NCBI RefSeq assembly: GCF_021604585.1
Contig: NZ_BQJG01000003.1
Source of the DNA: Hyphococcus sp.
Lineage (GTDB): Bacteria > Pseudomonadota > Alphaproteobacteria > Caulobacterales > Parvularculaceae
DNA length: 64,000 nucleotides
Reading direction: 5' to 3' (one strand)
Shown here: positions 1,749 through 43,582 of the stretch, piece after piece
Numbering within the stretch: position 1 is the first letter of the stretch
Layout: the number at the start of each line of letters is the position of its first letter
Translations under genes and position numbers: made by a program
The notes under the pieces: generated by a model
The model's input: the letters and a program-made list of their open reading frames with translations, nothing else
Databases searched by the model: none
Told to the model about the DNA's origin: nothing

Positions 1749-3275
1749 TTATACCTCGACAGGCGGAACGGGCTGCGGCGGCGCGCTGGGGTCAAGCTCG
1801 GGGACGTCGATGACGCCGCGCCCGACATGGCTGCGGCCGCGGCCGTAAAGGAAATAGACGGCCAGCCCGATCACCGCCCAGATGGCGAACAACATCAATG
1901 TGTAATGCGATAGGCTGAAAAACAGATAGACGCAGCCAATAATTGCAACCGGCGCGATTACATAAACCGCTGGCGTCCGGAAAGGCCGCGCCCTGGCCGG
2001 GTCTGTGCGCCGCAACACCATGACCGCAACCGACACCATGGCGAAGGCGAAAAGGGTTCCCGAGTTGGAAATGTCCGCAAGCGCCCCCACCGGAAAGAAC
2101 GCCGCGAACACCGCCACGAACACGCCGGTCACGATGGTGATCACATGCGGTGTGTGAAAACGCGGATGAATTTTGGAGAATACGCCCGGCAACAGGCCGT
2201 CGCGGCTCATCACAAAGAAAATCCGGGTCTGGCCGAACATCATCATCAAGATCACCGAAGGCAGGGCGATGCCGGCGGCGAGCCCCACCAGATTGCCGAT
2301 CTGCGGCCAGCCGATTTCGCGCAAGGTCCAGGCGATCGCCTCTCGCGAACACACCACCGCTTCATTGGCGATACCATTGCAGGCAACCGTCAGCGCGGCG
2401 CTGCCCGGCGCGAGACCCGATCCATCCGCCGCCAGCATGGGCTGCGCGCCGACCGTGCCGGTGACGCCGGCCGCCACCAGAATATAGAACACCGTACAAA
2501 TCGTCAGTGAACCAATCAATCCGATGGGCATGTTGCGCTGGGGGTTGCGCGTTTCCTCGGCGGCGGTGGAGACTGCGTCAAAGCCCACATAGGCGAAGAA
2601 AATCGACGCGGCGGCGGCGGAAATGCCGCCAATCCCGAGCGGTGCGAATGGCTCGAAATTCTCGGCGTTCATCACCGGCAGAGCAAGAACAATGAACACC
2701 GTCAACGCCGTGATTTTAACGCATACGAGCACTGCGTTAACTCGCGCGCTTTCGGTGGTGCCGATCACCAACAGCCACGTCACCGCCAGCGCAATGAACG
2801 CTGCCGGCACGTTAACGATCCCACCGCCGCTGGGGCCGGCGATAAAGGCGAGCGGCAGATCGATTCCGAGAACGTTATGCAGAATGCCGACCACATAACC
2901 GGACCAGCCTACCGAAACAGCGCCAGCCGCCACCGCATATTCCAGCACCAGCGCCCAGCCCACCATCCAGGCGAGCACCTCGCCCATAACCGCATATGTA
3001 TAAGTGTAAGCCGAGCCCGACACCGGAACCATAGAAGCGAGTTCGGCGTAGCAAAGCGCCGCCACGGCGCAGACGGACGCCGCGATGATGAAGGAGATCA
3101 TCATTCCCGGCCCGGCCTTTTGCGCGGCTTCGGCGGTGAGAACGAAAATGCCGGTGCCGATAATAGCGCCGACGCCAAGCATGGTCAGTTGAAATGCGCC
3201 AAGCGAGCGCGGCAGCGCGTGTTTCTCGGCGGTCGCGAGAATCGCATCGAGCGATTTCACCCGGTCAAACAACAT
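1749..3275 (-). CDS. APC-family amino acid permease
   Basis: About 12 TM segments and the motif LTMLGVGAIIGTGIFVLT. Start trimmed to the internal MLFDRVKSL (cat at 3273-3275), because the upstream extension is not protein-like. Confidence 0.85.
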   Translation of the reverse strand: MLFDRVKSLDAILATAEKHALPRSLGAFQLTMLGVGAIIGTGIFVLTAEAAQKAGPGMMISFIIAASVCAVAALCYAELASMVPVSGSAYTYTYAVMGEVLAWMVGWALVLEYAVAAGAVSVGWSGYVVGILHNVLGIDLPLAFIAGPSGGGIVNVPAAFIALAVTWLLVIGTTESARVNAVLVCVKITALTVFIVLALPVMNAENFEPFAPLGIGGISAAAASIFFAYVGFDAVSTAAEETRNPQRNMPIGLIGSLTICTVFYILVAAGVTGTVGAQPMLAADGSGLAPGSAALTVACNGIANEAVVCSREAIAWTLREIGWPQIGNLVGLAAGIALPSVILMMMFGQTRIFFVMSRDGLLPGVFSKIHPRFHTPHVITIVTGVFVAVFAAFFPVGALADISNSGTLFAFAMVSVAVMVLRRTDPARARPFRTPAVYVIAPVAIIGCVYLFFSLSHYTLMLFAIWAVIGLAVYFLYGRGRSHVGRGVIDVPELDPSAPPQPVPPVEV

Positions 3276-3478
3276 GTGAGGAGGATCTTTCGCGGCAATT
3301 GCGAGCGCGGACGCTACGCCGAATTCAAAAACACGCAAGCAGTATCTTGCGCAGGCCACAGAGATACAGTGGCGGCCCTCCCGCGCTCGTGACTTGCCGA
3401 GCCTCGCGCCTTGCCTATCTCCCGTCAATCATTGACGTTGCAAAAGCGCTGTTTCCTTAGGCGCAATAGAGGAGAGCC

Positions 3479-3856
3479 ATGATGCCCCGCGACGCTGTTC
3501 TGATCGACAATCCGGCCCTTAAAGACTTGCCCTTTTCGCCCGCCGTACGTGCTGGCGAGCTCACTTACCTCAGCGGTCAGGTCGGGCTCGATCCCGCCAC
3601 CGGCAAGCTCGCCGAGGGCGCGGGCGCGCAAACGGCGCAAGCCCTCGACAATGTCGCTGCTGTCGCCAAAGCGGCGGGCAAGTCGCTCGATGATGTGGTG
3701 AAAGCCAATGTCTTTATTGTCGACATGGCCGACTACGCCGCCGTGAACGAGGCCTACGCGAAAGGTTTTGCAAAACCCTTCCCGGCGCGCACCTGCGTTG
3801 CTGTCGCGGCGCTGCCGCTTGGCGCCCGGGTCGAAATCGAAGTCATCCTGCGCTAG
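3479..3856 (+). CDS. ridA: RidA/YjgF family reactive-intermediate deaminase
   Basis: 125 aa with FSPAVRAGELTYLSGQVGLDPATGKL and a C-terminal ARVEIEVI signature. Confidence 0.85.
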   Translation: MMPRDAVLIDNPALKDLPFSPAVRAGELTYLSGQVGLDPATGKLAEGAGAQTAQALDNVAAVAKAAGKSLDDVVKANVFIVDMADYAAVNEAYAKGFAKPFPARTCVAVAALPLGARVEIEVILR

Positions 3857-3883
3857 ACCTCATCCTTCACCCGGAGCATTTTC

Positions 3884-7939: not shown

Positions 7940-8377
7940 ATGAAACCCGGTCCAAAATTTGGCCTAAAACGCACTATCGCCCTTTACGCGCTTGGTCTGG
8001 CGCTCGCCGCCATGGCGCTCGCCTGGCTTGAATATAAATATGTGACCCGGGTCTTTACTGGCGAAATCTATGTGGTTCTCATCGCCCTCGGTTTCACCTC
8101 CCTGGGTGTCTGGGCCGGCCGGCGCCTCACCCGCAAAACCCAAGCAGCGCCATTTGAGCTTAATCATGCGGCGCTGGCCTCGCTCGGCGTTACGGATCGC
8201 GAGCATGAGATGCTGCTGGCGCTGGCCGATGGCCTCACCAACAAAGAAATCGCCCGCCGTTTCGACGTTTCGCCGAATACGGTGAAGACGCATGTGTCGA
8301 GCCTTTATGAAAAGCTCGAGGTTCAGAGGCGAACCCAGGCTGTGCAAAAGGCGAAAGACCTAGCGCTCATCCCGTAG
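7940..8377 (+). CDS. Membrane-anchored LuxR/FixJ-type HTH regulator (no receiver domain)
   Basis: Two N-terminal TM helices. The C-terminal region has LTDREHEMLLALADGLTNKEIARRFDVSPNTVKTHVSSLYEKL. Confidence 0.75.
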   Translation: MKPGPKFGLKRTIALYALGLALAAMALAWLEYKYVTRVFTGEIYVVLIALGFTSLGVWAGRRLTRKTQAAPFELNHAALASLGVTDREHEMLLALADGLTNKEIARRFDVSPNTVKTHVSSLYEKLEVQRRTQAVQKAKDLALIP

Positions 8378-8483
8378 GCCATACCCTGCCCAACGTCTTG
8401 TTTTTGCTGAAATCACCCATTCGGGCGATGGATTTCCCGCGCGTTTCGCGGAACTGTGGAGGCCAGACAGGGAGACATCGCCC

Positions 8484-8855
8484 ATGGGAAATCCAGTCAT
8501 CCGTTTCGACATTGGCTGCCGCGACCGCAAAGCGACCACCGCCTTTTATGAAAAGGTGTTCGGATGGTCAGGGCGCGAGGCGGGCTTCAATACGGAGATC
8601 GACACGGGCGGCGGCAAGGGCATCGACGGCGCCGTCACCGCGCTCGGCCATGAGCCGCATAATTACGTCATGATCTATATGGAGGTCGCCGACATCGACG
8701 CGGCCTGTACGGCGATCAAGGACGCAGGCGGCAAGATCACCATCGGCCCGGTTGAGATTCCTGAAGATAACGGGCCGGGGGATGGAGGAAAGTTCGCCTG
8801 GTTCAATGATCCGGAAGGCAACCTGCTCGGCATTTTCGAGCCGCCAGCGCAATAA
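8484..8855 (+). CDS. VOC (glyoxalase) family protein
   Basis: 123 aa with FYEKVFGW and a C-terminal FNDPEGNLLGIF. Confidence 0.75.
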   Translation: MGNPVIRFDIGCRDRKATTAFYEKVFGWSGREAGFNTEIDTGGGKGIDGAVTALGHEPHNYVMIYMEVADIDAACTAIKDAGGKITIGPVEIPEDNGPGDGGKFAWFNDPEGNLLGIFEPPAQ

Positions 8856-8869
8856 AGAGGGACAACAAA

Positions 8870-9400
8870 ATGCTCAAAATCGCGGCCATTTATGGGGCCA
8901 TCGCCGGCTCGATCACCATCGCCGTCATGTGCGTGGGCTTCGTTCTCGACAGCAAAGGGCTCCATGGCGCCAGCAGCGCCGTCTTCGGCTATGCGGTGAT
9001 GATTGTCGCGCTGACGATGATTTTCATCGGGATCAAACGCTATCGCGATCAGTCCCTCGGCGGAGTCATCAAGTTTGCGCCCGCCTTCGGTCTCGGCCTC
9101 GCCATCGCCGCCATTGCAGCTGTCTTTTACTCGACAGGCTGGGAGATTTATCTCGCCGCGACCGATTACGCCTTCGCAGAAAACTACGCCAATGCGGTGA
9201 TTGCGAAAAAGGAAGCGGCGGGCCTTGCCGGCGCAGAGCTGGACAAAGTACGCGAAGCCATGGCGAGTTTCGTCGATAGCTATAAAAATCCGTTCTACCG
9301 CTTCCCCATGACCACGGTGGAAATCTTCCCGGTGGGGTTCCTTGTGGCGCTGGCATCGGCTGCGCTGTTGCGCAACCCAAAGGTCTTTCCAGCGCGCTAA
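8870..9400 (+). CDS. Multi-TM membrane protein (DUF4199-like)
   Basis: 176 aa with 4 predicted TM helices. The family call is from memory only. Confidence 0.55.
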   Translation: MLKIAAIYGAIAGSITIAVMCVGFVLDSKGLHGASSAVFGYAVMIVALTMIFIGIKRYRDQSLGGVIKFAPAFGLGLAIAAIAAVFYSTGWEIYLAATDYAFAENYANAVIAKKEAAGLAGAELDKVREAMASFVDSYKNPFYRFPMTTVEIFPVGFLVALASAALLRNPKVFPAR

Positions 9401-9873
9401 CGCATTGAATCCAATAGCATTCTCAAGGGCGTCAACTGGCTCAACAAGCCCGCCCAATCAGCGTCAGGAAGCTCGGCTTTGAGCTTGGCGAGGCCGGGCG
9501 CCACCGCATGCACGGCGGCGTCGCGAATGGCGCGGCCCGATGGCGTCACCTTCACACGCTTGATGCGGCGGTCATCCGCATCCGGAATAAATTCGATATA
9601 GGATTTGGCTTCGAGCTTTTTCACGGTGGACGACATGGTTGGCTGCGCCACTTGCATCGCCGAAGCAATCTCACCGATGGTCTGCAGCGCGTCGAGCCGC
9701 AACAGGTGATTGATCACGGCAAACTGGGCAAGGGTGAGGTCGCCGGGCATCACCCGCTCAAATTCGCGGTCCGCCAGATTGGCGATGATCGAAATTTCCG
9801 TAAAGACTTTGAAAATTGCAGGATCGCCGGGAAGGCCGAGCCCCGACGGTGTCGATTTTTTATTCATCAGCAA
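9397..9873 (-). CDS. MarR family transcriptional regulator
   Basis: 158 aa with LTLAQFAVINHL and a winged-HTH DDRRIKRVKVTPSG stretch. Confidence 0.85.
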   Translation of the reverse strand: MLMNKKSTPSGLGLPGDPAIFKVFTEISIIANLADREFERVMPGDLTLAQFAVINHLLRLDALQTIGEIASAMQVAQPTMSSTVKKLEAKSYIEFIPDADDRRIKRVKVTPSGRAIRDAAVHAVAPGLAKLKAELPDADWAGLLSQLTPLRMLLDSMR

Positions 9874-11032
9874 GAATCAACCGGGTTTCAAGCGGCCAGC
9901 GCGGCGCCGGCGGCGGCGTCTTGGCATAGCCGAAGCGGAACAGCCCTTGCAACCGCCCGTCAAGCGGCGCACGCGGCGTGCAAATGCCGGTAAAGTCATG
10001 TATTTCCTCGAATAATTCCGTCATTTCCGGATATTCTTGCAACGCCTGACTGAAAGGTTGCATGGCGAGACCCGTGGATGTCGCCGCCAGTTGCAGGCGC
10101 ACCCAGCCGGCGCCCGCCCGCAATTGATCCGTACGCGAATTGCCTGACGTGGCGAGCCAGCCAAACGCCATCGCGCTGTCGATATTACTGTTGTAAAATT
10201 TGCGCGTCTCCGCATAGGCCGTCGATGAGGGATCATCCATTTTCTCCTGTGTCAAAAGTCCGGCGGCCCCCATGGCCTCCATCACCGGACCTGACAGGGA
10301 GATGCCGTCAGGCGCTGCATTGATCTGAACCTCGCCGATGCGCGTCAGCATGGAAGATTCATGCAAGGCTTCCGGCGTTTCCATCTCCACCGCCCAGGCC
10401 TTGCGGCAAATGTCTTTAAGGGCGGCGAGATTCGTCCCGTCATTCACCCATTCAAATTCGCCGTCGCCGGGCCGCAAAAACTCATCCAGCGCGTTGAGCG
10501 TTTCAGCGCTGACGTCGCGCGTCTGATCAAAAGGGGCGCGCGCTGTGCGGCGTGCGGCAATGGCTGCAAATAAAGGGTCTTTGGCTGTCGCGGCGGCTTC
10601 GACAAACCGCACAGAAGCAACCGGCCTCGCATCGAGGCGCGGCTGCGGCTCTCCTTCTGGAAACGCCGCGATCTCAAGCGCAAATCCTTGCTCCGCAGCA
10701 GCAATCCGCATCAGCTCCACAAAAGCGCCGAGACCAATGCAGATCTGACGGTCGGGCGGATCGGTCACCGGCAGGCGCCGGTCGAGATCGCAAAACAAGG
10801 TCAGCGAATGAGCGTCATCGAGCCGGACCAGCCAGGGCTGGCGGTTATGCGGGTTCGGCGCCAGCACCGCCCAGGAAAGCGCATCAAGACGCGGATCACC
10901 GAAACCCGTTCCCGCCGCTTTCCAGGGCGCCCGCGCCGCCGACAAATCTGAATGCAGCAATTTCGCCACGCCGGCGCCAACCAGCGCGAGCCCTGCGCCG
11001 CCGGTCGCCAATATGACCCGCCGTGAAACCAT
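9860..11032 (-). CDS. Tat-signal nitroreductase-like (Acg family) FMN oxidoreductase
   Basis: N-terminal SRRVILATGGAGLALVGAG Tat-like signal. Overlaps marR by 14 nt, suggesting an operon. Confidence 0.7.
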   Translation of the reverse strand: MVSRRVILATGGAGLALVGAGVAKLLHSDLSAARAPWKAAGTGFGDPRLDALSWAVLAPNPHNRQPWLVRLDDAHSLTLFCDLDRRLPVTDPPDRQICIGLGAFVELMRIAAAEQGFALEIAAFPEGEPQPRLDARPVASVRFVEAAATAKDPLFAAIAARRTARAPFDQTRDVSAETLNALDEFLRPGDGEFEWVNDGTNLAALKDICRKAWAVEMETPEALHESSMLTRIGEVQINAAPDGISLSGPVMEAMGAAGLLTQEKMDDPSSTAYAETRKFYNSNIDSAMAFGWLATSGNSRTDQLRAGAGWVRLQLAATSTGLAMQPFSQALQEYPEMTELFEEIHDFTGICTPRAPLDGRLQGLFRFGYAKTPPPAPRWPLETRLILADE

Positions 11033-31362: not shown

Positions 31363-33264
31363 CTACGACGCCTCGCTCCATTCGCTTTTGCACTCGCCCC
31401 ATTTGGCGAGAAGCGAAGTGAGGTCAGACGGCTCAAACGGTTTCGAGAGGAAATCATCCATTCCGGCGGCGATGCATTTTTGCCGGTCTGCGGCCATGGC
31501 GTTGGCGGTCAGCGCAATGATCGGCGCCCGGCGCATGGGCCCGTCAAGACGGCGTATGCGGCGCGTCGCTTCAAGGCCGTCCACCTCCGGCATGTGCATA
31601 TCCATCAAGATAATGTCGTATTCAGCGAGCATCACCGCGTCGACAGCCTCGGCGCCGTTTTGCGCGACTTCAACACTGTGACCGGCGCGTTTGATGATGG
31701 TTGTCGCCAGCACGGCGTTGATCTGGTTATCTTCGGCGAGCAGCACGCGATATGTTTTGTTTTGTGATGGCGCGGGAGAGGCGGTGGCGGGCGTTTGGGC
31801 CTGCGGCGCCGGGGTCTCGGTTTCGTCGTCAGTCAGCTGTTTGTGCAGCGACGACTGGCGAATGGGCTTGATGAAATAGCCATTAAATCCAGCCTCGCGC
31901 AATTCGTTGATGCGTCCGCGCGCCATAGGCGACAGCAGCACATAAGATTGCACAGCCTTGCGGGCGAGCGGTTGGGCGCTTTCGCCGGCGATGTAGATGT
32001 CGCAGAGCAACATTGCATTGGGGTGCTTGGCCATAGCGTCGAGGGCGCCGGCGGGCGTTGAAACGGACAGTACGTTTTCGGCGCCGATGGCCGCGAGTTG
32101 CAATTCAAGGCAGCGCGCCAGAACTGTAGAGCGCGTGGCGACGATGACCGGCGTTGTGAATGGCCGCGGACGCGCGGGCGCCTTCCCGTCAAATCCCAGC
32201 GACACATTGAACGTGAACGTGCTGCCTTCGCCGAGCTTGCTCTCCAGTGAAATTTCGCCGTCCATGGCGCGAACAATCTTGCGCGCAATGGCGAGGCCAA
32301 GGCCGGTGCCTTCGCGTTTGCGTTCGCCGACGGAATCGCCTTGCGAGAATTCTTCAAAAATAGATGCGAGCTTGCCTTCGGAAATGCCGACGCCCGTGTC
32401 GCGTACTGAAAACGCCACTTGGGCGGCGCCGTTTTCCGCCGAGACAAGGCGCGCTTCGATGGCGACGCCGCCGGTGTCGGTGAACTTCACGCCATTGCCC
32501 GCGAGATTGATCAACACCTGCCGCAGGCGCGCTTCATCGCCAAAGAGCTCCGCCGGGACGGCGCTATCCACATAGGCGGTGATTTCAATGCCTTTATCCG
32601 CCGCCTTTGGCGACAATAATTCCGCCACGGATTGAATCATGTTGAGCGGCGAAAACGCCGCCTGTTCGATATCGAGGCGGCCGGCCTCGATCTTTGAATA
32701 ATCGAGAAGATCGTTGATTAGCGCGAGCAAGGCGACGCCGGATTCACGCACGGATTCGGCATAGGCGCGCTGGTTTGGTTCAAGACCGGTATCCAGCAGC
32801 AGCGACGTCATGCCGAGAATGCCGTTTAACGGCGTGCGCATTTCATGGCTCATCGTCGCCAGCAATTGCAGCTTTGGATCGGTTTCGCCTTCAGCGGCCT
32901 GGGCGCGGGCCTCAGCGATCACTTCGTATACAGACGAAGAGGCCGGGCCGCCTCTTTCCACGCCGTCCGGCGCGCCCACATAAAGGCGTTCGCCGCCCGA
33001 AAGAACGGTCTCAGTCCAGTCGACGATAAAGGCGCGGCCGGCGGAATGGGCCTCTGTGCGATAGCTGGCTGGCGAGCCTGGCTCAGCGGCGCCGCCGCCC
33101 GGCGCGAAAGCGCGGCCATGCCAGCTCTGGGCGGGCGCGCCGAAAAACCCGGCGAAGCTTTGGGACACGAAGCGGATCAACCCGGCTTCATCGCAAACAA
33201 CAATCAGTTCCCTGACATTTTTGGAAAAGGCGCCTGCCTGCTGCATTGATCGAGATTTCCCCAT
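31363..33264 (-). CDS. Soluble hybrid sensor histidine kinase: PAS-like, HisKA, HATPase, degenerate REC, REC
   Basis: H-box MSHEMRTPLNGILG and a G-box GTGLGLAIA. The first receiver-like segment lacks the acidic pair (VIVATRS). The second is canonical (VLLAEDNQIN, ILMDMHMPEVDG, SKPF). Confidence 0.85.
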   Translation of the reverse strand: MGKSRSMQQAGAFSKNVRELIVVCDEAGLIRFVSQSFAGFFGAPAQSWHGRAFAPGGGAAEPGSPASYRTEAHSAGRAFIVDWTETVLSGGERLYVGAPDGVERGGPASSSVYEVIAEARAQAAEGETDPKLQLLATMSHEMRTPLNGILGMTSLLLDTGLEPNQRAYAESVRESGVALLALINDLLDYSKIEAGRLDIEQAAFSPLNMIQSVAELLSPKAADKGIEITAYVDSAVPAELFGDEARLRQVLINLAGNGVKFTDTGGVAIEARLVSAENGAAQVAFSVRDTGVGISEGKLASIFEEFSQGDSVGERKREGTGLGLAIARKIVRAMDGEISLESKLGEGSTFTFNVSLGFDGKAPARPRPFTTPVIVATRSTVLARCLELQLAAIGAENVLSVSTPAGALDAMAKHPNAMLLCDIYIAGESAQPLARKAVQSYVLLSPMARGRINELREAGFNGYFIKPIRQSSLHKQLTDDETETPAPQAQTPATASPAPSQNKTYRVLLAEDNQINAVLATTIIKRAGHSVEVAQNGAEAVDAVMLAEYDIILMDMHMPEVDGLEATRRIRRLDGPMRRAPIIALTANAMAADRQKCIAAGMDDFLSKPFEPSDLTSLLAKWGECKSEWSEAS

Positions 33265-33320
33265 TGCACAACCGGGGTCATCATGCGGGTTTGGCCTTGA
33301 AAAATGATTGACGAGCTTGG

Positions 33321-34907
33321 TTAACGGCGGCTGAAAATCGGGCCGATTTCGCTTGCGGGCTGGGGTTGGGCTGTTCCGGCGGCGCTGTTGGAGATGCTGT
33401 CGGAGGCGCGGCGGAAGCTGACCGCTTCGGCGATATGGCGGCGCTTGACGCCGCCGCCGCCATCGAGATCGGCGAGGGTGCGCGCGACCCTTATGATGCG
33501 GGTGTAAGCGCGGGCGGAAAGGCGCAGCGCTTCGGCGGCGCGGGACAAAAGGGCTGCTCCCTCTGCATCAGGCGCGGCGATTGTTGTCAAATCGGCGTCG
33601 GCCAACGCTGCATTGGGCTTGCCGTTTTTACCATTAGGGCCGCGCGCGGCTTGTGCGGTGCGAGCGGCCGCGACGCGCGCTGCGACAATGGCTGTGGTCT
33701 CCCCCGTCGCGGGCGCGGCGAGGTCGGCCGGCGTTACAGCTGGCAATTCAATCGACAGATCCATGCGATCAAGCAGCGGACCCGAAATCCGGGACTGGTA
33801 AATTTCCTCGCAATTGGGGCCTTTGCCGCATTGCCGGCCGCTGGCCCGGCCATAGCCGCAACGGCATGGGTTCATCGCGGCGACAAGTTGAAACCGGGCC
33901 GGATAGCGCACGTGAAAATTCGCCCGCGCGATCAGCACATCCCCGGTTTCCAGCGGCTGGCGCAAACTGTCGAGCACTGGTGCGGTAAATTCCGGCAGCT
34001 CATCAAGAAACAGCACGCCGTGATGGGCGAGAGAGGCTTCACCCGGCTTCGCCCTGATGCCGCCGCCGATCATCGCGGCCATGGAGGCCGAGTGGTGCGG
34101 CGCGCGAAACGGGCGCGCGCGGGTTAACCGTCCGCCTTCAAGCAGCCCGGCCAGCGACTGGACCATGGAGATTTCCAGCATTTCCGACGGAGAAAGCGGC
34201 GGCAGCAACCCCGCAAGCCGGGCCGCCAGCATGGATTTGCCGGCGCCTGGCGGGCCCACCATCAACAAATTATGGCCGCCCGCCGCGGCAACCTCGAGGG
34301 CGCGTTTGGCGGTCTCTTGACCCTTGACGTCGATCAGATCCGGTATGGCTGGCGGCGCCTCCAGCGCGCCCGGCGCCGGAGGCGATAAAACCTGCGTTCC
34401 CTTGAAGTGATTGACCAGCTGAATCAGTGATTTCGGCGCCAAAATCGTCGCGTCCCCGCCCGCCCATGCGGCCTCCGCGCCACTTGCCGCCGGACAGATC
34501 AGGCCAAGCCCCATGGCGTTGGCCGCGACCGCCGCCGGCAGCGCCCCGGCGCAAGGCGCGATGGAGCCGTCTAGGCCAAGCTCGCCCATCACAGCGAATC
34601 CGGCGGCGGCGTCATGCGGCGCCGCGCCCATTTCCATGAGCAGGCCGAGGGCGATGGCGAGATCGAAGTGACTACCCTCCTTGGGCAAATCGGCCGGGGC
34701 GAGATTAACGGTGATGCGTTTGACCGGAAGTCCCAGACCAACAGCGCAGAGAGCGGCGCGCACTCTTTCCCGCGCTTCAGAAACCGCTTTGTCCGGCAGG
34801 CCGACAATGGTGATCGGGCTGCTGCCGCCATTGGTGAGCTGGACCTGGACGGTCACCGGCCGGGCGTCGACGCCATGAAAGGCGAAGGTGGTGATTTGCG
34901 CGACCAT
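33321..34907 (-). CDS. comM: YifB/ComM family Mg-chelatase-like AAA+ ATPase
   Basis: MVAQITTFAFHGVDARPV, Walker A GPPGAGKSM and GVLFLDELPEF. Start set at the ATG that follows gggaga. Confidence 0.9.
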   Translation of the reverse strand: MVAQITTFAFHGVDARPVTVQVQLTNGGSSPITIVGLPDKAVSEARERVRAALCAVGLGLPVKRITVNLAPADLPKEGSHFDLAIALGLLMEMGAAPHDAAAGFAVMGELGLDGSIAPCAGALPAAVAANAMGLGLICPAASGAEAAWAGGDATILAPKSLIQLVNHFKGTQVLSPPAPGALEAPPAIPDLIDVKGQETAKRALEVAAAGGHNLLMVGPPGAGKSMLAARLAGLLPPLSPSEMLEISMVQSLAGLLEGGRLTRARPFRAPHHSASMAAMIGGGIRAKPGEASLAHHGVLFLDELPEFTAPVLDSLRQPLETGDVLIARANFHVRYPARFQLVAAMNPCRCGYGRASGRQCGKGPNCEEIYQSRISGPLLDRMDLSIELPAVTPADLAAPATGETTAIVAARVAAARTAQAARGPNGKNGKPNAALADADLTTIAAPDAEGAALLSRAAEALRLSARAYTRIIRVARTLADLDGGGGVKRRHIAEAVSFRRASDSISNSAAGTAQPQPASEIGPIFSRR

Positions 34908-35149
34908 CGGTTCTCCCTGCCCCCGGAACAGTTTAACTCGCAAAGAACATAACAGGAACGATTTGCTTTGGAAAGCTGCAAAAAGCCGCCGGTCGCGGCC
35001 GCTTTTTCCACAGGATTTCTTGCAAAACTTTTAGCAAACGCGGCTCGGCCCCCTATCGGCATTTGGGGCCGATTCGCCCTAGAAGGGCGGCTGGACCGTT
35101 TTGCTCTGCCTATTGGCGAACGGCTTGTTCCGATTCAGAAACGATTTCG

Positions 35150-36808
35150 ATGTCCTCAGTTTCAATCCTGCACGCGCCAAAGGACGAGGCGCTCGGCGAA
35201 AAGATCGCGGCGGCGCTGGCGAGCGCCGGGCTTCATGCGTCGCGTCCCGGTGACGGGACCGGCGGGCATGACGATGCGGCGATCATTGTCTGGACAGAGG
35301 CGGCGGCGAAGCTGGTGCAATTACACGAGCAGGCCCTGTCAGCCATGACGCGCGGCGCGTTGGTGCCGGTGGCGGTTGGCGGGGTTTTGCCGCCTGACGA
35401 ATTTGAAAGCCTGCCGCCGGTTGATCTTTCCGGATGGACCGGCTCAAGCGACGATCCGCGCTGGCGATTTGTGCTGGAGGAAATCCAGCTGACGAAACAG
35501 CGCTTGGGTCTGCGCGACGGCGTTGTCTGGAGCGCGGCGGAGAGCGAAGCCGATCCGGTTGACCTGGAAGCGGAAAACGATTTGGAGATTTCAGCGCAGC
35601 TCAAACGCGCACTGCCTCCTAATGATGCGCCGCCGGCGTTTCTGACGCCAGCGTCAACACGCCGCCGGTTCAGCGCCAAGGAAGTCGCGATTGGCGCGAC
35701 GGCGGGACTGGTCGCCCTGACGGTCGCAACCGCCTTGCTGGCGCCCATTCTGTTGCCTGCGCCCAAAGCGGTTCCGCCGCTCGCCTCAACGCAAAAAGAG
35801 CCAGCGGTGCAAATCCCCGACCCGCCGGAACAATCTGCTTCGGCGCTGGCTTCCTTGTCTGTCTCCGGGACAGAGGCAGATGTTCCGCTTACGGATGATG
35901 CGCCCGCCGCCCCTGCACTCGAGAGCGCAGCCACAAATCGGGACGCCATTAAGGATTTGATTGCGGCGGTGGATGCGGAAACCATCGAGGCGGGATCTGC
36001 GGCCGCCGCTTCGCCCGAGCCCGCCACAGCGCAAGCCGTGGTCGGCGACGCGTTCAAGGTCAATACCTTCAAGGATTGCGCGCAATGCCCGGAAATGGCG
36101 TCGCTGCCAGCGGGGTCGTTCCAGATGGGCGCAGCGCCCGGCGAGAGCGCGAAAGCGAAGTCGGAAAGTCCGCGACGCCAGGTCGCCATCGGCAAAAGTT
36201 TTGCGCTTGGCACGCGCGAGATCACCTATGCGCAGTGGGATGCGTGCGTCGCTGATGGCGGCTGCACAATGGCGCCGCCCGATCATGGCTGGGGCCGCGG
36301 CGACCGCCCCGTGGTCAGCGTTTCTTTTGACGACGCGCGTTCTTATGTGGCGTGGCTGTCGGAAAAAACCGGACAGTCCTATCGCCTGCCGAGCGAGGCT
36401 GAATGGGAATATGCGGCGCGCGCCGGGTCCGATGCGGCCTTTGCAACCGGCGCCGGGATTTCCACAGCGCAAGCCAATTATAACGGCCAGTTCCCCTATC
36501 GCGGCGCAAAAGAAATCTTCCGTCAACGGACGGTTCCGGTCGCAAGCTTTCCGGCAAATGCGTTCGGCTTGTTTGATATGAATGGAAATGCATGGGAATG
36601 GACTGCTGATTGCTGGAAAGCGAGCCATGCCGGCGCGCCGGCGGATCAATCGGCTGTTGTGGATGGCGATTGCGCCAAGCGCGTCTTGAAGGGCGGCGCG
36701 TGGAATACCGGCGCCTGGCGCTTGCGTTCCGCGCACCGAATTGGCAAAGCCAAAACGGCGCGCGAGTTCGATAATGGGTTCCGTGTGGCCAAGGATCTTG
36801 GATCATAG
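35150..36808 (+). CDS. TIR-like domain / single TM / FGE-sulfatase-like (SUMF1/EgtB/PvdO family, non-catalytic) protein, paralog 1
   Basis: The N-terminal ~115 aa (VSILHAPKDEALGEKIAAALASAGL, AAIIVWT, ALVPVAV, DLSGWTGSSDDPRWRFVL) fits the TIR_2 strand/helix pattern. The TM helix is VAIGATAGLVALTVATALLAPILL. The C-terminal domain has CAQCPEMASLPAGSFQMG, YRLPSEAEWEYAARAG, NGNAWEWT and KGGAWN. Confidence 0.75.
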   Translation: MSSVSILHAPKDEALGEKIAAALASAGLHASRPGDGTGGHDDAAIIVWTEAAAKLVQLHEQALSAMTRGALVPVAVGGVLPPDEFESLPPVDLSGWTGSSDDPRWRFVLEEIQLTKQRLGLRDGVVWSAAESEADPVDLEAENDLEISAQLKRALPPNDAPPAFLTPASTRRRFSAKEVAIGATAGLVALTVATALLAPILLPAPKAVPPLASTQKEPAVQIPDPPEQSASALASLSVSGTEADVPLTDDAPAAPALESAATNRDAIKDLIAAVDAETIEAGSAAAASPEPATAQAVVGDAFKVNTFKDCAQCPEMASLPAGSFQMGAAPGESAKAKSESPRRQVAIGKSFALGTREITYAQWDACVADGGCTMAPPDHGWGRGDRPVVSVSFDDARSYVAWLSEKTGQSYRLPSEAEWEYAARAGSDAAFATGAGISTAQANYNGQFPYRGAKEIFRQRTVPVASFPANAFGLFDMNGNAWEWTADCWKASHAGAPADQSAVVDGDCAKRVLKGGAWNTGAWRLRSAHRIGKAKTAREFDNGFRVAKDLGS

Positions 36809-36952
36809 TGTACATGCAGGCGATGTCTGGTCAGAAGACATCCAGGGTAGCGTAATCAAGTCGTGCCGGTTCGGTCGCAGAACGCCATTGCATAGCGAAG
36901 CGATGGGTTTTTGGCCTGTTGGGGAAAACGAAGAGGGGTGTCGTCAGCAAAA

Positions 36953-38887
36953 ATGACGGTGCAACAGAAAATCGATAGCGCGCGGCAATCCGAAGCGCGG
37001 GGCGTGATTCAGCTCCTCGCTGCTGGAGGCAACGCCAATTTCGCCGACAAGATCGCGGCGGCGTTGTTGCGTGCGGGCTATCGTCTCGATCCCGGCGAGT
37101 TTGATCCGCGCCGCATCGATGCTGTGGTTGTGCTGTGGACAGGCGTCGCCCTCGACAAGCCCGAGCTGATTGCGGTGGCGCGCGAGGCATGGAAAGCCGG
37201 CCGCCTGGCGCCGGTCAGTATCGGCCGGGTCGAGCCGCCGTTTGGCGCCCGTGACGCCGCGCCCATGGATCTCGCCGGCTGGCGCGGCGACGATGAAGAT
37301 CCGCGCTGGCGCTTTGTTTTGTCTGATCTGGAATCGATCAAGATTCGTCAGCGCGTGGCGGGCCCGATTGATCGTCCAACTGGTATGCCGGCCGTCGAAA
37401 CATCAGACGCCGCCGGCGATCTGAGCGCGCCGAACGCGCTCGCCAATGATGATCCGGTTCGCATCCATCATCCTGCGCGCCATCTCTGGCGCAATCATAT
37501 CCGCCCCTCGGCGGCGCCTTTTGTCGCGGGCATGGCGGTGGTTAGCGCCGCCGGACTCGCTGCGTTCTCACTTGGCGCGCGCAATGATCAAGATGTTGCG
37601 CCGCAGGCGCCGCCAATCGCAGCGCAATCCGGCCCATCGGAAACCAAGCTGGCGCAGGCGAGATTGCGCGAGGGCGCCAGCCTGAAGCCGGCAACGCCGA
37701 CCGCTGGCGAGCCAGCGCAGACAAGCGCTGACCTGGCGGCCGAACCGGGTGTTCTCGAACAGACCGGCGAAGCGCCGGGCGAGGCTGCGCTGGCCTTTGT
37801 GCGCCTGGCCGATGGCGTCGCGCCTGACGCGCCGGATGCAACGTCTGTGGAGTTGGTCAGTCCGGATGGCGAGCCCGGAACCAATAGTGATGAGGTAGAA
37901 ACCGGGATCGAACTGGAAGCGCTGCCGGAAGAATTCGCCGCGATCCTCCCGCCACGCCTCAAAGCGGATGCGCTGACATTGTCTGATACAGGGACTGCCG
38001 CCGCCCAGACGGAAGAACCAGCCATAAATAATCCGCAAACGGAGCAAATACCCGCCAGCGATCTCAATCAACAGGCGTTGAACGCGCTGACTGCAGGCGC
38101 GACGCCCTCGTCTGCGCCCGCCGCCACCGAATATCTTGGCGACTATTTCAGCGATTGCGCCATGTGCCCGGCTATGGCGGCGCTCGACGGGGGCGCCTTC
38201 ACCATGGGCGCGGCGCCGGGCGAGGCGGGGCGCGACCCTGCTGAAAGCCCGCAAAGACGGGTCACTATCGCTTATCGCTTCGCCATCGCCACGCGCGAAA
38301 CGACCTTCGATCAGTGGTCGGCTTGCGTCGCAGATGGCGGATGCCAGACTTATGCCCCTTCGGATGCTGGCTGGGGCCGCGGCGCGCATCCGGTGATCAA
38401 CGTCTCCTACGAAGATGCGAGCGCCTATGCGCGCTGGCTCTCGGCCAAGACCGGAAAATATTACCGCCTGCCGAGTGAAGCGGAATGGGAATTCGCTGCG
38501 CGCGCCGGAACCGCAACGCCGTTTGCGTTTGGGCGCGGCCTCAGTTCCGACGCCGCGAATATAAATGGCCGCGAGCCCTATAGCGCTTCGCCCGGCATCT
38601 TCCGTGCACAGACGATCGCCGTCTCCGGATTCCAGCCGAATGTTTACGGCTTGTTCGACATGCACGGCAATGTCTGGGAATGGACCTCCGATTGCTGGAG
38701 CGCCAGTCATAATGGCGGGCCTGCCACCGGCGCCGCGCGCATTGACGGCGACTGCTCGCGCCGGGTGATCAAGGGCGGCGCGTGGAATACTTCCGCCAGC
38801 GCCGCGCGCTCGGCCCACCGGCAAGCCGCGAGCCAGATGGCGCAGACCAATGACATCGGCTTCCGGGTCGTGCGGATTCTCGACTAG
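36953..38887 (+). CDS. TIR-like domain / single TM / FGE-sulfatase-like protein, paralog 2
   Basis: Same architecture as paralog 1: ADKIAAALLRAGY, AVVVLWT, DLAGWRGDDEDPRWRFVL, then a TM helix. The C-terminal domain has CAMCPAMAALDGGAFTMG, YRLPSEAEWEFAARAG, HGNVWEWT and KGGAWN. The start is uncertain (36911 or 36953). Confidence 0.72.
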   Translation: MTVQQKIDSARQSEARGVIQLLAAGGNANFADKIAAALLRAGYRLDPGEFDPRRIDAVVVLWTGVALDKPELIAVAREAWKAGRLAPVSIGRVEPPFGARDAAPMDLAGWRGDDEDPRWRFVLSDLESIKIRQRVAGPIDRPTGMPAVETSDAAGDLSAPNALANDDPVRIHHPARHLWRNHIRPSAAPFVAGMAVVSAAGLAAFSLGARNDQDVAPQAPPIAAQSGPSETKLAQARLREGASLKPATPTAGEPAQTSADLAAEPGVLEQTGEAPGEAALAFVRLADGVAPDAPDATSVELVSPDGEPGTNSDEVETGIELEALPEEFAAILPPRLKADALTLSDTGTAAAQTEEPAINNPQTEQIPASDLNQQALNALTAGATPSSAPAATEYLGDYFSDCAMCPAMAALDGGAFTMGAAPGEAGRDPAESPQRRVTIAYRFAIATRETTFDQWSACVADGGCQTYAPSDAGWGRGAHPVINVSYEDASAYARWLSAKTGKYYRLPSEAEWEFAARAGTATPFAFGRGLSSDAANINGREPYSASPGIFRAQTIAVSGFQPNVYGLFDMHGNVWEWTSDCWSASHNGGPATGAARIDGDCSRRVIKGGAWNTSASAARSAHRQAASQMAQTNDIGFRVVRILD

Positions 38888-39058
38888 AGCGCATTCCGAA
38901 AAGTGGGAACCGGTTTTCGGATCAAATGCGCGACAAAACAAAAAACTAGAGCTCTTTCTCTGACTCGTATTCAAATGGACATGCTCCAGCGCCCTAATTT
39001 CGCCTTTTCCGCCCGCAAGGCTAGGATCGGGCGAATTCGCAGGACGGGAGAGACATTC

Positions 39059-40813
39059 ATGCGGAAATGGATTTTAGCGGCGCTGCCGCTGGCGGCGCTG
39101 GCGGCGTGTGCAACGCCCCCTGAATCGGGCGCAAACCGCACGAATTCCAGCGCTAGCAAATCATCGCCCGTCGATGGGCAGTGTCCGGGCGCCGATGCCT
39201 CATCTGCTGTGGTCGTGACAGGCAGCCGCGTTTCAAGGCCGCAATTGTCGGCGCCGTCACCAGTCGCGAGAGTGGACTCTGAGCAGTTGAACTTAAAAGG
39301 CGCTGTTAAGAGCGAGCAATTCTCAAGTGCGTTGCCGCCTGCGAGCGCTTCGCCGCCGCCAGAACCGCAAATCACCGAACAATATGAAAAGACCGACCCC
39401 AACCCAGTGAAGCTGACCACCGAAGAGCCGGTCTCAACCTTCTCGTCTGACGTTGACACCACCGCCTATTCGGTAATGCGGCGCTATATCTCCTCGAACA
39501 ACCAACTGCCGCCATCCGACTCGGTGCGGGTCGAGGAATATGTCAATTATTTCGATTATCAGTATACAGAGCCAAAAAGCGCCGACGCGCCCTTTGCGCC
39601 GACGATTTGGGTGACGCCGTCTCCGTGGAACGCCGGCACGCGGCTTCTGCACATAGGCGTCAAGGGCTACGATCTTAAACCCGAAACCACGCCGGATGCG
39701 AACATCGTTCTCCTGCTTGATGTGTCGGGCTCGATGCAGGCGGAAAACAAGCTGCCTCTGGTGAAGAAGTCCGTCGAGTTGCTCGTCGATGAAATGTCGA
39801 AAGACGATCGCATCGCCATCGTCGTTTATGCTGGCGCCGCAGGTGTGGTGCTCGAACCGACGCCGGGCAACCGGAAAACCAAAATCATCGCAGCGCTAAA
39901 CTGTCTCGAAGCGGGCGGCTCCACCGCTGGCGGCGAAGGCCTCGCGCTGGCTTACAAGTTGGCCGAAGAAAACTTTGCGAAAGACAAGGTCAACCGCATC
40001 ATTCTCGCCAGCGACGGCGACTTCAATGTCGGCGTTGTCGATGCGGATTCACTGGAGGATTTCGTCGCCCGCAAGCGCAAGACCGGGATTTACCTGACCA
40101 TTCTCGGTTTTGGCGAGGGCAACTATAATGACGTTATCGCGCAAAAACTGGCGCAAGCGGGCAATGGCGCCGCCGCCTATATCGACACGCTGAACGAGGC
40201 GCGCAAAGTTTTGGTGCGCGAGTTTCGCTCGACGTTGTTTCCCATCGCCAAGGATCTGAAATTCCAGGTGGAGTTCAACCCGGCGGTGGTCGCGGAATAT
40301 CGGTTGATCGGTTATGAAACGCGCCTGCTCAACCGCGAAGACTTTAACAATGACGCCATCGATGCGGGCGATATTGGCTCCGGCCATACGGTGACAGCGC
40401 TTTATGAGCTTGCGCTTGTCGGCTCGACATCGTTGATCGATGATCTGCGTTATCAGCCACGAGAAGTGCCGACAAAAGTCTCCGATGAATGGGCGTTTGT
40501 CCGTTTACGCTATAAATTGCCCGGCGAAGAAACCAGCCGTCTTATTGAGGTGCCGTACACAGGCGTTGATCCGATACTGGAACCGAACCTGGCGAAAAGG
40601 CATGCCCCTGCGCATAAGGATGCAGATTTCGCCGCGGCTGTCGCGGCGTTTGGCCAAAAACTGCAGCGCGCCGGTTATACGGACCGCTATTCCTATGACG
40701 AGATCATCGCGCTGGCGCAGTCCGCAAAGAGCGACGACCCTTACGGCGACCGCGCCGAGTTCATCAATCTCGTCCGCGCCGCCGCCAAGATCGATGCCGA
40801 TCAAAAAGATTAG
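39059..40813 (+). CDS. von Willebrand factor type A lipoprotein (YfbK-like: vWA N-terminal module + vWA + DUF3520)
   Basis: Lipobox LAAC after [13 protein letters not shown]. The MIDAS motif is LLLDVSGSM. The C-terminal region has [19 protein letters not shown]. Start set after the gggagag SD. Confidence 0.82.
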
Positions 40814-40911
40814 GACGGCTAGAGCCTCATTTTCGCCCCATTGCCCGCCACAACTTTCAATCGGGCAATAGGGCGAATTGCATACGGGGCCAAAAGAAGG
40901 GGCGAGAGAGA

Positions 40912-41313
40912 ATGCATTTCCTGAAAATTTCAGCAGCGGCGGTCATCGCCGCAATGACGTTCAGTGTTGGCGACAATAGCGCAAACGCACAGCAACTATC
41001 GGACGCCGATTACGAACTTTGCAGCGTCTATAATGGCGACGATGATTTTGTCGGCTATGACAGCGTCTGTCTTGAGCGCACGCGCGCGCAGCTGCGGCGC
41101 TATCAGCGGCAATCGGCGAGCAGCGCTTCAAGCTCATCATACTCGGGCGCCTATTATTGCCCATATTACGCCAATGGCGGACGCGGCTATCCGGGCACGG
41201 TTTATACGGACGGGCGCCCGCCTTCGACCGATCCTTATGGGTCGTTTGATCGCTCCGTGAATGGTGTCCGCTGTATTTCCCGCCCGAATTACAACAGCGC
41301 CGGTTATTACTGA
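40912..41313 (+). CDS. Small secreted Tyr/Gly/Ser-rich protein with 4 Cys, hypothetical
   Basis: Signal peptide [26 protein letters not shown]. The mature part is rich in Y, G and S, for example [26 protein letters not shown]. Confidence 0.55.
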
Positions 41314-41390
41314 CCTGCGGAACAGAATGCGTTAGCGGCGGCGGCGCTCTCCGTTTCCGGGGCTCTTGCCGCGAGGTCTTGCCGAACTGT

Positions 41391-41433
41391 AAAAATCCCG
41401 GCCCCATGGGGACAACCCATGCCGGGATTTTTT
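41391..41433 (+). terminator. Strong rho-independent terminator (A-tract/T-tract flanked, potentially bidirectional)
   Basis: aaaaatcccggc (41391-41402) pairs with gccgggattttt (41421-41432), followed by further T residues. Confidence 0.75.
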
Positions 41434-41455
41434 GCCGCGCCAGACCCGCTGACGG

Positions 41456-41484
41456 GTTGCGGGTCCCAAACCCCCTCCTTATAT
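41456..41484 (+). promoter_or_regulatory. Candidate RpoH (sigma-32) heat-shock promoter for dnaKJ
   Basis: GTTG-N18-CTTATAT compared with the alphaproteobacterial consensus CTTG-N17/18-CYTATNT. It lies 170 nt upstream of the dnaK ATG. Confidence 0.3.
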
Positions 41485-41653
41485 CCCGCCAGAACGCGGG
41501 GCTTGGCCTGATGACGGGCCGCAGCATCGCATCTGTCAAATGTCACAATAGGGGCGTGTCCGCTTCCGGCGCTTACTCGGCGCCAATCGTCTGTTGAGGG
41601 CCAAAAGGCCGGAAATAACGGGACAAGCTCGCTGAAACGGAGAAGAGACGAAA

Positions 41654-43582
<1,929 letters not shown>

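Follow-up and report, generated by a model that had tools for sequence, protein, structure and literature searches.

A tandem pair of Hyphococcus membrane proteins joining a TIR-fold domain with degenerate catalytic features to a PvdO-like FGE-fold domain

Two adjacent genes, here called p1 and p2, lie on the same strand of a 64,000-nucleotide stretch of Hyphococcus sp. DNA (contig NZ_BQJG01000003.1, assembly GCF_021604585.1; hereafter the window). Both encode a TIR-fold domain, one transmembrane helix, a linker and a domain with the formylglycine-generating enzyme (FGE) fold that lacks the catalytic cysteines. Judged from aligned residues, the TIR domain is very probably catalytically inactive, and p1 would accordingly not cleave NAD+. 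We tentatively favour a reading in which p1 and p2 are a lineage-specific, non-enzymatic transmembrane scaffold or receptor that couples ligand binding in the periplasm to TIR association in the cytoplasm. Bacterial TIR domains are currently assumed, almost automatically, to be immune effectors that consume NAD+, and the p1 family would run counter to this. Its main value would lie in giving a clear-cut case of a bacterial TIR that is conserved yet catalytically dead. The features of the two genes are as follows.

35150..36808, + strand: p1, 552 amino acids (aa) from an ATG; TIR-like domain, transmembrane helix, linker and PvdO-like FGE-fold domain
35150..35515, + strand: p1 predicted cytoplasmic TIR-fold domain, residues 1-122 (Pfam TIR_2, phmmer, AlphaFold2 and Foldseek)
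35675..35752, + strand: p1 transmembrane helix, residues ~176-201 (Kyte-Doolittle hydropathy and AlphaFold2)
35753..36049, + strand: p1 predicted periplasmic Ala/Pro/Glu-rich linker, predicted to be disordered (AlphaFold2 pLDDT <50)
36050..36805, + strand: p1 PvdO-like FGE-fold domain, residues 301-552 (Pfam PF03781, PvdO structure 5HHA and Foldseek)
36953..38887, + strand: p2, 644 aa; TIR-like domain ~17-137, transmembrane helix ~186-208, FGE fold ~399-644

A preliminary description of this DNA had proposed two same-strand open reading frames (ORFs) of 552 and 644 aa, tandem paralogs with a single shared architecture. Both ORFs were found at the coordinates it gave, on the + strand, and the common architecture is borne out by Pfam, hydrophobicity and an AlphaFold2 model of p1. 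BLASTP and global alignment agree on the paralogy: the two proteins are 47% identical over 354 aa of linker and FGE domain and 38% identical in their N-domains by BLASTP, and the last 245 aa are 58% identical in a global alignment. The model of full-length p1 contains the TIR-like domain (1-122), the transmembrane helix (176-201) and the FGE fold (301-552, pLDDT ~97). A low-confidence juxtamembrane stretch lies between the TIR domain and the transmembrane helix, and residues 202-300 are disordered or of low confidence. At least 82 clusters at 50% identity have the same architecture. Within the pair, p1 is the member conserved across the family, with orthologs of 535-734 aa and a linker of variable length, and p2 orthologs were found only in a Hyphococcus-like subset. 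A protein identical to p1 (100% identity) is named 'SUMF1/EgtB/PvdO family nonheme iron enzyme [Hyphococcus sp.]' at NCBI. One p1 ortholog, at 8001-9878 of locus L016, has a normal N-domain and last 245 residues that are only 19% identical to p1. For the FGE domain, tblastn gives it a weak match, which may reflect a frameshift, an assembly error in a metagenome-assembled genome (MAG) or a replaced C-terminus.

That the N-domain of p1 and p2 is a TIR domain is indicated by three independent lines of evidence: Pfam TIR_2 matches, a phmmer link and the modelled structure. The TIR_2 model (PF13676) matched full-length p1 at E 2.6e-3 and the p1 N-domain alone at E 6.8e-4 (18.7-20.6 bits for the two), and p2 at E 0.16 (12.9 bits), all below the gathering cut-off of 28 bits. 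A scan of 185,579 species genomes with narrow peptide patterns gave 24 related loci. In the set of 29 N-domains drawn from the window and these loci, all 29 matched TIR_2 at E<=0.1, the best at E 2.1e-7. An exhaustive phmmer search of 1.84 billion representative sequences with p1 residues 1-135 returned 433 matches at E<=1e-3, and the N-termini of the weaker matches (E ~1e-6 to 1e-5) reach E 1e-20 to 1e-25 against TIR_2. When the N-domain alignment was run as a profile against PDB sequences, no TIR was found, only chance-level matches to TIM and to de novo designed proteins, and the fold was therefore settled by AlphaFold2 and Foldseek. The model of p1 residues 1-135 reached a pLDDT of 91 and a pTM of 0.83, and 12 of the 14 Foldseek matches in the PDB at E<=1e-3 were TIR domains (TIR-STING, TLR15, TRR-2, SPARTA and MAL). 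Over the wider range of E 2e-4 to 5e-3, the best matches are the TIR domains of TIR-STING, TLR15, Hydra TRR-2, SPARTA TIR-APAZ, MAL/TIRAP, BtpA/TcpB, SARM1 and AbTir. At TMq 0.5-0.66 their scores are modest, and some REC domains are interspersed. The TIR_2-like N-terminus suggested by the preliminary description is thus supported by the 29 TIR_2 matches, by the phmmer link and by a model that TIR domains match best. Of the two Pfam families it expected, PF03781 is found strongly and PF13676 matches p1 and p2 below its gathering cut-off.

The catalytic features of this domain have been lost. We counted alignment columns in 111 FGE-carrying family members and in 51 of their closest TIR_2 relatives without an FGE domain. 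The motif LWS..S..S.WV..EA of the relatives aligns with VWTEAAAKLVQLHEQA in p1, which places Q61 of p1, and a V in p2, in the column of the catalytic Glu. The relatives hold E there in 41/51 sequences, whereas the family holds A in 41, Q in 35, E in 10 and V in 9 members, with the rest scattered. The preliminary description had read a conserved Glu in the helix after the strand AAIIVWT / AVVVLWT; the helix after IVVWT holds no conserved Glu. E60 as a shifted catalytic Glu was ruled out, since its column is unconserved too (A in 24, E in 23, D in 22). Four residues upstream of the Glu, the W position of the W..E motif holds an aromatic residue (W, F or Y) in 36/51 relatives and in none of the 111 family members. 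The stretch comprising betaB, the BB-loop and alphaB is shortened and variable in the family alignments, and in the p1 model betaB (29-31) and betaC (43-48) are joined without an intervening helix, in a part where confidence is also lower. In enzymatic TIRs such as ThsB, AbTir, SARM1, TIR-STING and SPARTA, the catalytic Glu of alphaC stands in a W-x-x-x-E context, which p1 and p2 do not have. The BB-loop and alphaB of these enzymes form a composite active site upon oligomerisation, while the corresponding segment of p1 is short and without the helix.

Other parts of the domain have been kept. The shared DL.GW.G..DDPRW motif pointed out by the preliminary description is real and near-invariant across the 111 members. 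It reads P-x-D-L-x-G-W-x-G-x3-D-P-R-W-x-F at p1 residues 90-107, and residues 92-107 are invariant or nearly so: W96 and W105 occur in 111/111 members, D102 in 110, P103 in 109 and R104 in 108. The near-invariant positions (P90, D92, L93, W96, G98, D102, P103, R104, W105 and F107) sit on the betaE strand and at the start of the long alphaE helix, which heads toward the membrane. Relative to the closest relative, L001, the ratio of nonsynonymous to synonymous substitutions (dN/dS) of the TIR domain comes to 0.09 in p1 and 0.12 in p2, values that are rough because dS is near saturation. Loss of the catalytic features together with the kept motif and the low dN/dS argues that the TIR domain is a constrained pseudoenzyme and not a decaying relic.

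These results bear directly on the proposal that the TIR is an NAD+-consuming or signal-generating effector, which fits poorly with a Glu in only 10/111 members and the loss of the W and of alphaB and the BB-loop. In its full form, this explanation would make p1 and p2 envelope-spanning immune receptors: the FGE-like sensor would detect phage, predators or damage and trigger a TIR NADase or signal effector, leading to abortive infection, and the duplication would diversify the sensor. The TIR fold and the TIR_2 homology are indeed real, the closest relatives without an FGE domain keep the Glu, and the TIR domains of 8/8 relatives tested match PADLOC TIR effector models. FGS/FGE domains have also been proposed as sensors fused to TIR, caspase and vWA (von Willebrand factor A) domains (PMC7159879; PMC10907252). 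However, p1 and p2 carry Q and V in place of the Glu, and p1, p2 and the neighbouring YfbK had no match in PADLOC-DB v2 at E<=0.01. Also, throughout the clade the family stays at one place among housekeeping genes, next to comM in 27/27 p1 loci, which speaks against the defence-system setting put forward initially. The pattern at the p1 locus points to a gene that is restricted to one clade and stays at a single site in the chromosome, as opposed to a mobile defence module.

The suggestion that the duplication reflects sensor diversification fares no better. Purifying selection acts on the TIR and FGE domains of p1 and p2 alike (dN/dS 0.08-0.12, dS being nearly saturated), and no hypervariability was seen in the FGE domain, where dN/dS is 0.08-0.10 and the C-terminal motif is kept among p1 orthologs. 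No template/variable repeat of a diversity-generating retroelement (DGR) was found in 33000-42000, only paralogous segments of ~70% identity; a whole-window search for reverse transcriptase was not made. The p2 orthologs are 71-84% identical in their N-domains, so the duplication is old and not a recent diversification. Since the TIR catalytic residue is lost and inheritance on the chromosome is stable, p1 and p2 are probably not NAD-burning phage-defence receptors, and we consider the immune-receptor explanation as a whole improbable. L028, a JGI metagenome locus from a more distant relative, also has two tandem TIR-FGE genes (1097-2527 and 2592-3872) beside comM, so tandem pairs are not unique to the Hyphococcus clade.

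The topology is consistent with a TIR domain inside the cell and an FGE-fold domain outside the inner membrane. Each protein has a single hydrophobic segment (p1 ~179-205, p2 ~186-208), and neither has a signal-like hydrophobic stretch at its N-terminus. In p1, the Kyte-Doolittle hydropathy peaks at 2.14 at residues 184-202, and the modelled helix at 176-201 has a pLDDT of ~90 and an R/K-rich N-terminal flank. Over the 111 family members, the flanks of the transmembrane segment hold on average 3.4 K+R on the N-terminal side and 1.5 on the C-terminal side, and the N-terminal flank is the richer one in 89 members. Exactly six Cys are found in the outer domain of 105/111 members, compared with a mean of 0.6 Cys in the N-domain. 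From the positive-inside K+R bias and the confinement of conserved Cys to the outer domain we infer an N-in, C-out orientation. The Parvularculaceae-specific p1 and p2 would then be bitopic inner-membrane proteins with the N-terminus inside, and the outer domain would be periplasmic and disulfide-bonded, which fits both the K+R and the Cys patterns. This agrees with the one transmembrane helix, missing signal peptide and periplasmic C-domain that had been predicted from the window.

The outer domain is assigned with much stronger scores than the TIR domain. The Pfam FGE-sulfatase family (PF03781) covers p1 residues 312-548 at E 3.7e-54 and p2 residues 405-641 at E 1.8e-52. The closest solved structure is PvdO (5HHA), which matches by sequence at E 2.5e-45 over an alignment of ~246 residues and by Foldseek at E 4e-25 with a TMt of 0.85; FGE structures match the p1 outer domain with TMt 0.63-0.73. 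Where p1 reads GGAW---NTGAWRLRSAHR, human FGE has GGSYMCHRSYCYRYRCAAR, and neither position of the human copper-binding pair C336/C341 is a Cys in p1, which also has a 3-residue deletion there. The preliminary description of a C-terminal FGE fold without the catalytic Cys pair therefore stands, and formylglycine-generating activity is unlikely for the outer domain. It is PvdO-like yet not PvdO, because its scores with the NCBIfam equivalog for dihydropyoverdine dehydrogenase (NF051459) are only 193 and 185 bits, where the cut-off is 500. An invariant C-x-x-C-P motif contributes to the six conserved Cys, and KGGAWNTGGWRLR[AS]AHR, which replaces the FGE active site, is conserved in distant p1 orthologs. 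The FGE domain has a dN/dS of 0.08-0.10 and the p1 linker of 0.21. Among the search results, seven proteins of 700-950 aa (P0264, P0265, P0273, P0297, P0302, P0307 and P0325), several labelled Gammaproteobacteria or Wenzhouxiangella, combine very high bit scores with ~44% query coverage, which suggests tandem PvdO-like FGE repeats without a TIR. The source label of P0325 is 'Phage protein'.

The strength of selection on this domain raises the question of whether it is an enzyme after all. If so, p1 and p2 might be membrane-tethered periplasmic enzymes, for example oxidoreductases acting on an envelope metabolite or peptide, in which the TIR relic serves as an anchor or oligomerisation plug. 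The kept KGGAWNTGGWRLR[AS]AHR segment and the invariant C-x-x-C-P would fit such a role, as would the fact that the closest characterised homolog, PvdO, is needed for dihydropyoverdine oxidation (PMC6206403). However, PvdO itself has shown neither in vitro activity nor a detectable cofactor (PMC6206403), the equivalog score is far below its cut-off, the immediate neighbourhood holds no pyoverdine-type genes, and the conserved residues belong mostly to the generic core of the FGE fold. A mere anchor would also not be expected to keep a TIR domain with ~16 near-invariant residues and a dN/dS of 0.09. We therefore rate a tethered enzyme as unlikely, although it deserves more weight than the immune receptor.

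The outer domain could also act by binding alone, either as a periplasmic binder or neutraliser of the Tsi3 type or as a structural envelope tether like GldK/PorK, with the TIR domain doing nothing more than multimerising the anchor. Cys-less FGE-like immunity proteins of type VI secretion systems (T6SS) do act by binding (bioRxiv 10.1101/2021.05.21.445229). The GldK/PorK and GldJ models match the FGE domain at E 2.5e-24 or weaker, and PorK chains are among the PDB matches. The linker is long and disordered and resembles the periplasm-spanning spacers of TonB-type proteins. Envelope genes are also close by: a YfbK lipoprotein gene is adjacent in 9 loci, and Slam-like, glycosyltransferase and LemA genes lie downstream in others. 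These downstream neighbours are not conserved, however, and no vgrG or effector gene adjoins p1 or p2. Immunity proteins are usually encoded together with their effectors and differ from strain to strain, while p1 is fixed and conserved. A pure binder or tether is therefore doubtful in our view, about as much as the immune receptor.

p1 keeps a fixed position in the chromosome. Three further features of the window are relevant here.

33321..34909, - strand: comM (yifB), an Mg-chelatase-like AAA+ protein (Pfam and synteny; start codon from the sequence)
34945..34959, - strand: GTTC-N7-GTTC in the comM/p1 intergenic region, matching the alphaproteobacterial LexA-box consensus (17/28 intergenic regions compared)
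39059..40813, + strand: YfbK-type vWA lipoprotein (Pfam vWF_A, VWA, YfbK_C and LPAM_1; lipobox LAAC)

The scanned loci belong to Parvularculaceae (Hyphococcus, Marinicaulis and Parvularcula) or to related alphaproteobacterial MAGs. A divergently transcribed comM adjoins the p1 ortholog in all 23 scan loci that hold one. It also adjoins p1 relatives in four more divergent members of the family, with 26-43% blast identity to the p1 N-domain, which makes up the 27/27 loci mentioned above, all of them again Parvularculaceae or related alphaproteobacterial MAGs. It is the sole neighbour conserved family-wide. Downstream, dnaK follows p1 in 22/23 scan loci, and dnaK-dnaJ are there wherever the retrieved DNA reaches. 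Besides comM, the neighbourhood contains genes for a hybrid histidine kinase and an AmpG-like MFS transporter as well as dnaK-dnaJ. The AAA+ protein next to p1 is identified as ComM/YifB by its Mg_chelatase match at E 5.7e-91, against E 0.012 for bpMoxR, so there is no MoxR beside p1.

The genes between p1 and dnaK vary. The p2 orthologs come from eight loci, all in Hyphococcus-like genomes or related MAGs; the order is p1-p2-yfbK in the window and L001, and p1 ... yfbK-p2-dnaK in five loci (L003, L004 and L021-L023). For yfbK, the probable start is M53 of an ORF that opens at 38903 and was listed 52 codons too early. The gene adjoins a TIR-FGE gene in only 9/24 scan loci, and a conserved synteny with the vWA gene, as first assumed, is thus not seen. 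In L008-L020, L025 and L027, the cargo between the p1 ortholog and dnaK differs from relative to relative and is mostly envelope-related: the Marinicaulis clade has a conserved 500-aa membrane protein, L015 a Slam-like TPR and beta-barrel protein, L027 a cluster of GT2, methyltransferase and LPG-synthase genes, and L025 LemA/DUF2207. A conserved operon partner downstream of p1 was ruled out, as the downstream genes differ among clades.

The LexA-type box reads GAAC-ATAACAG-GAAC on the + strand and lies 36 bp upstream of the comM ATG (34909) and 190 bp upstream of the p1 ATG. In Caulobacter, comM is reported to be SOS-regulated (PMC3323433). Upstream of p1, no CtrA or sigma-32 consensus was found, only the LexA-type box near comM, and a scan for promoters and terminators gave counts at shuffle level.

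Two further observations concern the surroundings of the pair. At 40912-41313 the window encodes a predicted secreted protein of 133 aa with a high content of Tyr, Ser and Gly. Its N-terminus resembles a signal sequence, Pfam assigns it to no family, and L001, L003 and L004 keep it at 59-76% identity within the same comM-dnaK interval. In other bacteria, comM is a known insertion hot spot. The gene is intact in the window and is split by an insertion of ~3.9-4.2 kb in L001 (3147-7031) and L017 (2659-6893); the insert in L001 carries an IS1595-family transposase and a MazF/PemK-like toxin.

Returning to the scaffold or receptor reading, which we hold to be the leading, though still tentative, explanation, the sequence of events might be as follows. 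The cytoplasmic TIR fold would be linked through a juxtamembrane helix, the transmembrane helix and a long disordered Pro/Ala spacer to the periplasmic PvdO-like domain. The TIR may have descended from membrane-anchored, catalytically intact TIR_2 receptors (TIR-transmembrane-TPR, -FlgO or -CsgG) and become a pseudoenzyme, having dropped W..E as well as alphaB and the BB-loop while keeping and sharpening the betaE/alphaE surface motif D-L-x-G-W-x-G-x3-D-P-R-W-x-F. The PvdO-like domain would bind a conserved envelope or periplasmic ligand or partner, for which the YfbK vWA lipoprotein is one candidate. Binding could then be coupled through the transmembrane and alphaE helices to protein-protein association of the TIR in the cytoplasm, either homotypic, between p1 and p2, or with another TIR protein. 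A housekeeping role in the envelope seems plausible for the pair.

A more specific version of this idea regards p1 and p2 as non-catalytic counterparts of Toll-like receptors (TLRs), in which engagement of the periplasmic PvdO-like domain would cluster the pseudo-TIR, which would then nucleate or activate a separate, intact TIR via the near-invariant betaE/alphaE ('EE') surface. Parvularculaceae do encode an intact TIR, P0167, which has a DL..W.GD..DP.W segment and keeps W..E. We regard this version as a long shot. If true, the relay would be the first of the receptor-to-adaptor type in bacteria, in a core gene of a marine alphaproteobacterial family.

Several points weigh against the scaffold or receptor reading. 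Ten of the 111 members have a Glu in the catalytic column, and residual activity is possible in some lineages; the column itself was assigned by sequence alignment and not by superposed structure. The purifying selection seen in the FGE domain would be expected of an enzyme as much as of a binding module. The candidate partner YfbK is encoded next to a minority of the TIR-FGE genes, and the comM-side position may be plain vertical inheritance in one clade and say little about function. To our knowledge, no bacterium has been shown to signal through a TIR without enzymatic activity.

The family is nevertheless of interest beyond its own clade, as the p1 clade kept the TIR fold under strong purifying selection long after loss of the catalytic Glu. 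If the TIR is a scaffold, non-enzymatic TIR function is not confined to animals. Because cultured Hyphococcus strains exist, the p1 family is a tractable case, and p1 could help to find out which periplasmic targets are bound by Cys-less PvdO-like FGE-fold domains, which are widespread. The family also calls for caution in annotation, as its NCBI label refers to a nonheme iron enzyme and defence predictors could mislabel it as a TIR effector.

In the literature we found no description of a membrane-spanning protein combining TIR and FGE folds, nor of a pseudo-TIR at a fixed chromosomal locus. The predicted conflict systems in which FGS/FGE (C-type-lectin-fold) domains are fused to TIR, caspase, vWA and STAND modules come close (PMC7159879, Kaur et al., 2020; PMC10907252, Dore et al., 2024). 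Their FGS domain is C-terminal, is thought to be a binder or sensor and is often diversified by DGRs (PMC7159879; PMC10907252). The syntax is like that of p1 and p2, with a C-terminal Cys-less FGE fold, TIR among the N-terminal partners and a vWA protein nearby. However, these systems are found in multicellular cyanobacteria, actinobacteria and Chromatiales, together with MoxR/STAND NTPases, DGR reverse transcriptases and hypervariable FGS domains, while p1 and p2 span the membrane, have a degenerate TIR and a fixed position, and show neither a DGR repeat nor hypervariability. The MoxR-vWA ternary systems (Kaur et al., 2020) place MoxR and vWA in one operon with VMAP/effector domains; here, comM is divergent, and the YfbK vWA protein has no effector domains and is absent from most loci.

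Two further parallels concern the outer domain on its own. Tsi3-type T6SS immunity proteins share the periplasmic FGE fold without catalytic Cys and act by protein-protein binding (Lopez et al., 2021, bioRxiv 10.1101/2021.05.21.445229), but they are small, stand-alone proteins encoded beside vgrG and tse3, none of which adjoins p1 or p2. PvdO of Pseudomonas aeruginosa shares with p1 the F-K-D-C-x-x-C-P-E-M start, the lack of the FGE Cys pair and the periplasmic location. It is needed for dihydropyoverdine oxidation, the last step in forming the pyoverdine chromophore, and has never been shown to be active in vitro or to carry a detectable cofactor (PMC6206403). Unlike the p1 domain, which is the C-terminus of a TIR-transmembrane fusion, PvdO is a soluble single-domain protein of the pvdMNO operon.

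For the proposed mode of action, a parallel is found in animals. TLRs, MAL/TIRAP and MyD88 are non-catalytic and work through an ectodomain, a transmembrane segment and TIR-TIR assembly, a likeness of the proposed principle and not of orthology. MAL/TIRAP is among the best structural matches of the p1 TIR (TMq 0.62-0.64, TMt 0.66-0.69), and MAL also lacks helix alphaB. Compared with TLRs, p1 and p2 have the inverted N-to-C order, an ectodomain with an FGE fold in place of leucine-rich repeats, and no known downstream adaptor or pathway.

Outside its own family, the N-domain is closest to membrane-anchored TIR_2 proteins whose periplasmic part is a TPR, FlgO-like or CsgG-like domain; the TIR_2 relatives further include fusions to GGDEF-EAL, caspase and NACHT. 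Six such membrane-anchored proteins (P0105, P0107, P0108, P0114, P0115 and P0150) point to a sizeable class, apparently catalytically intact, which fits the idea of an 'inverted Toll-like receptor' better than p1 and p2 do and which, as far as we found in the literature, is uncharacterised. Like p1 and p2, the TPR, FlgO and CsgG proteins (P0105, P0107, P0108 and P0150) have a cytoplasmic TIR, one transmembrane helix and a periplasmic domain, which in their case is variable. They share the D-L-x-G-W-x-G-x3-D-P-x-W segment with the p1 family, the relatives carrying a looser form of it (DL.GW.G...DP.W). They keep S-x-W...E (E in 41/51) and a complete betaB/BB-loop/alphaB region, whereas p1 and p2 have lost both and carry an FGE ectodomain instead. 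The simplest history is that a receptor with a TIR, a transmembrane helix and a variable outer domain gained a PvdO-like ectodomain in the ancestor of the Parvularculaceae and then lost TIR catalysis.

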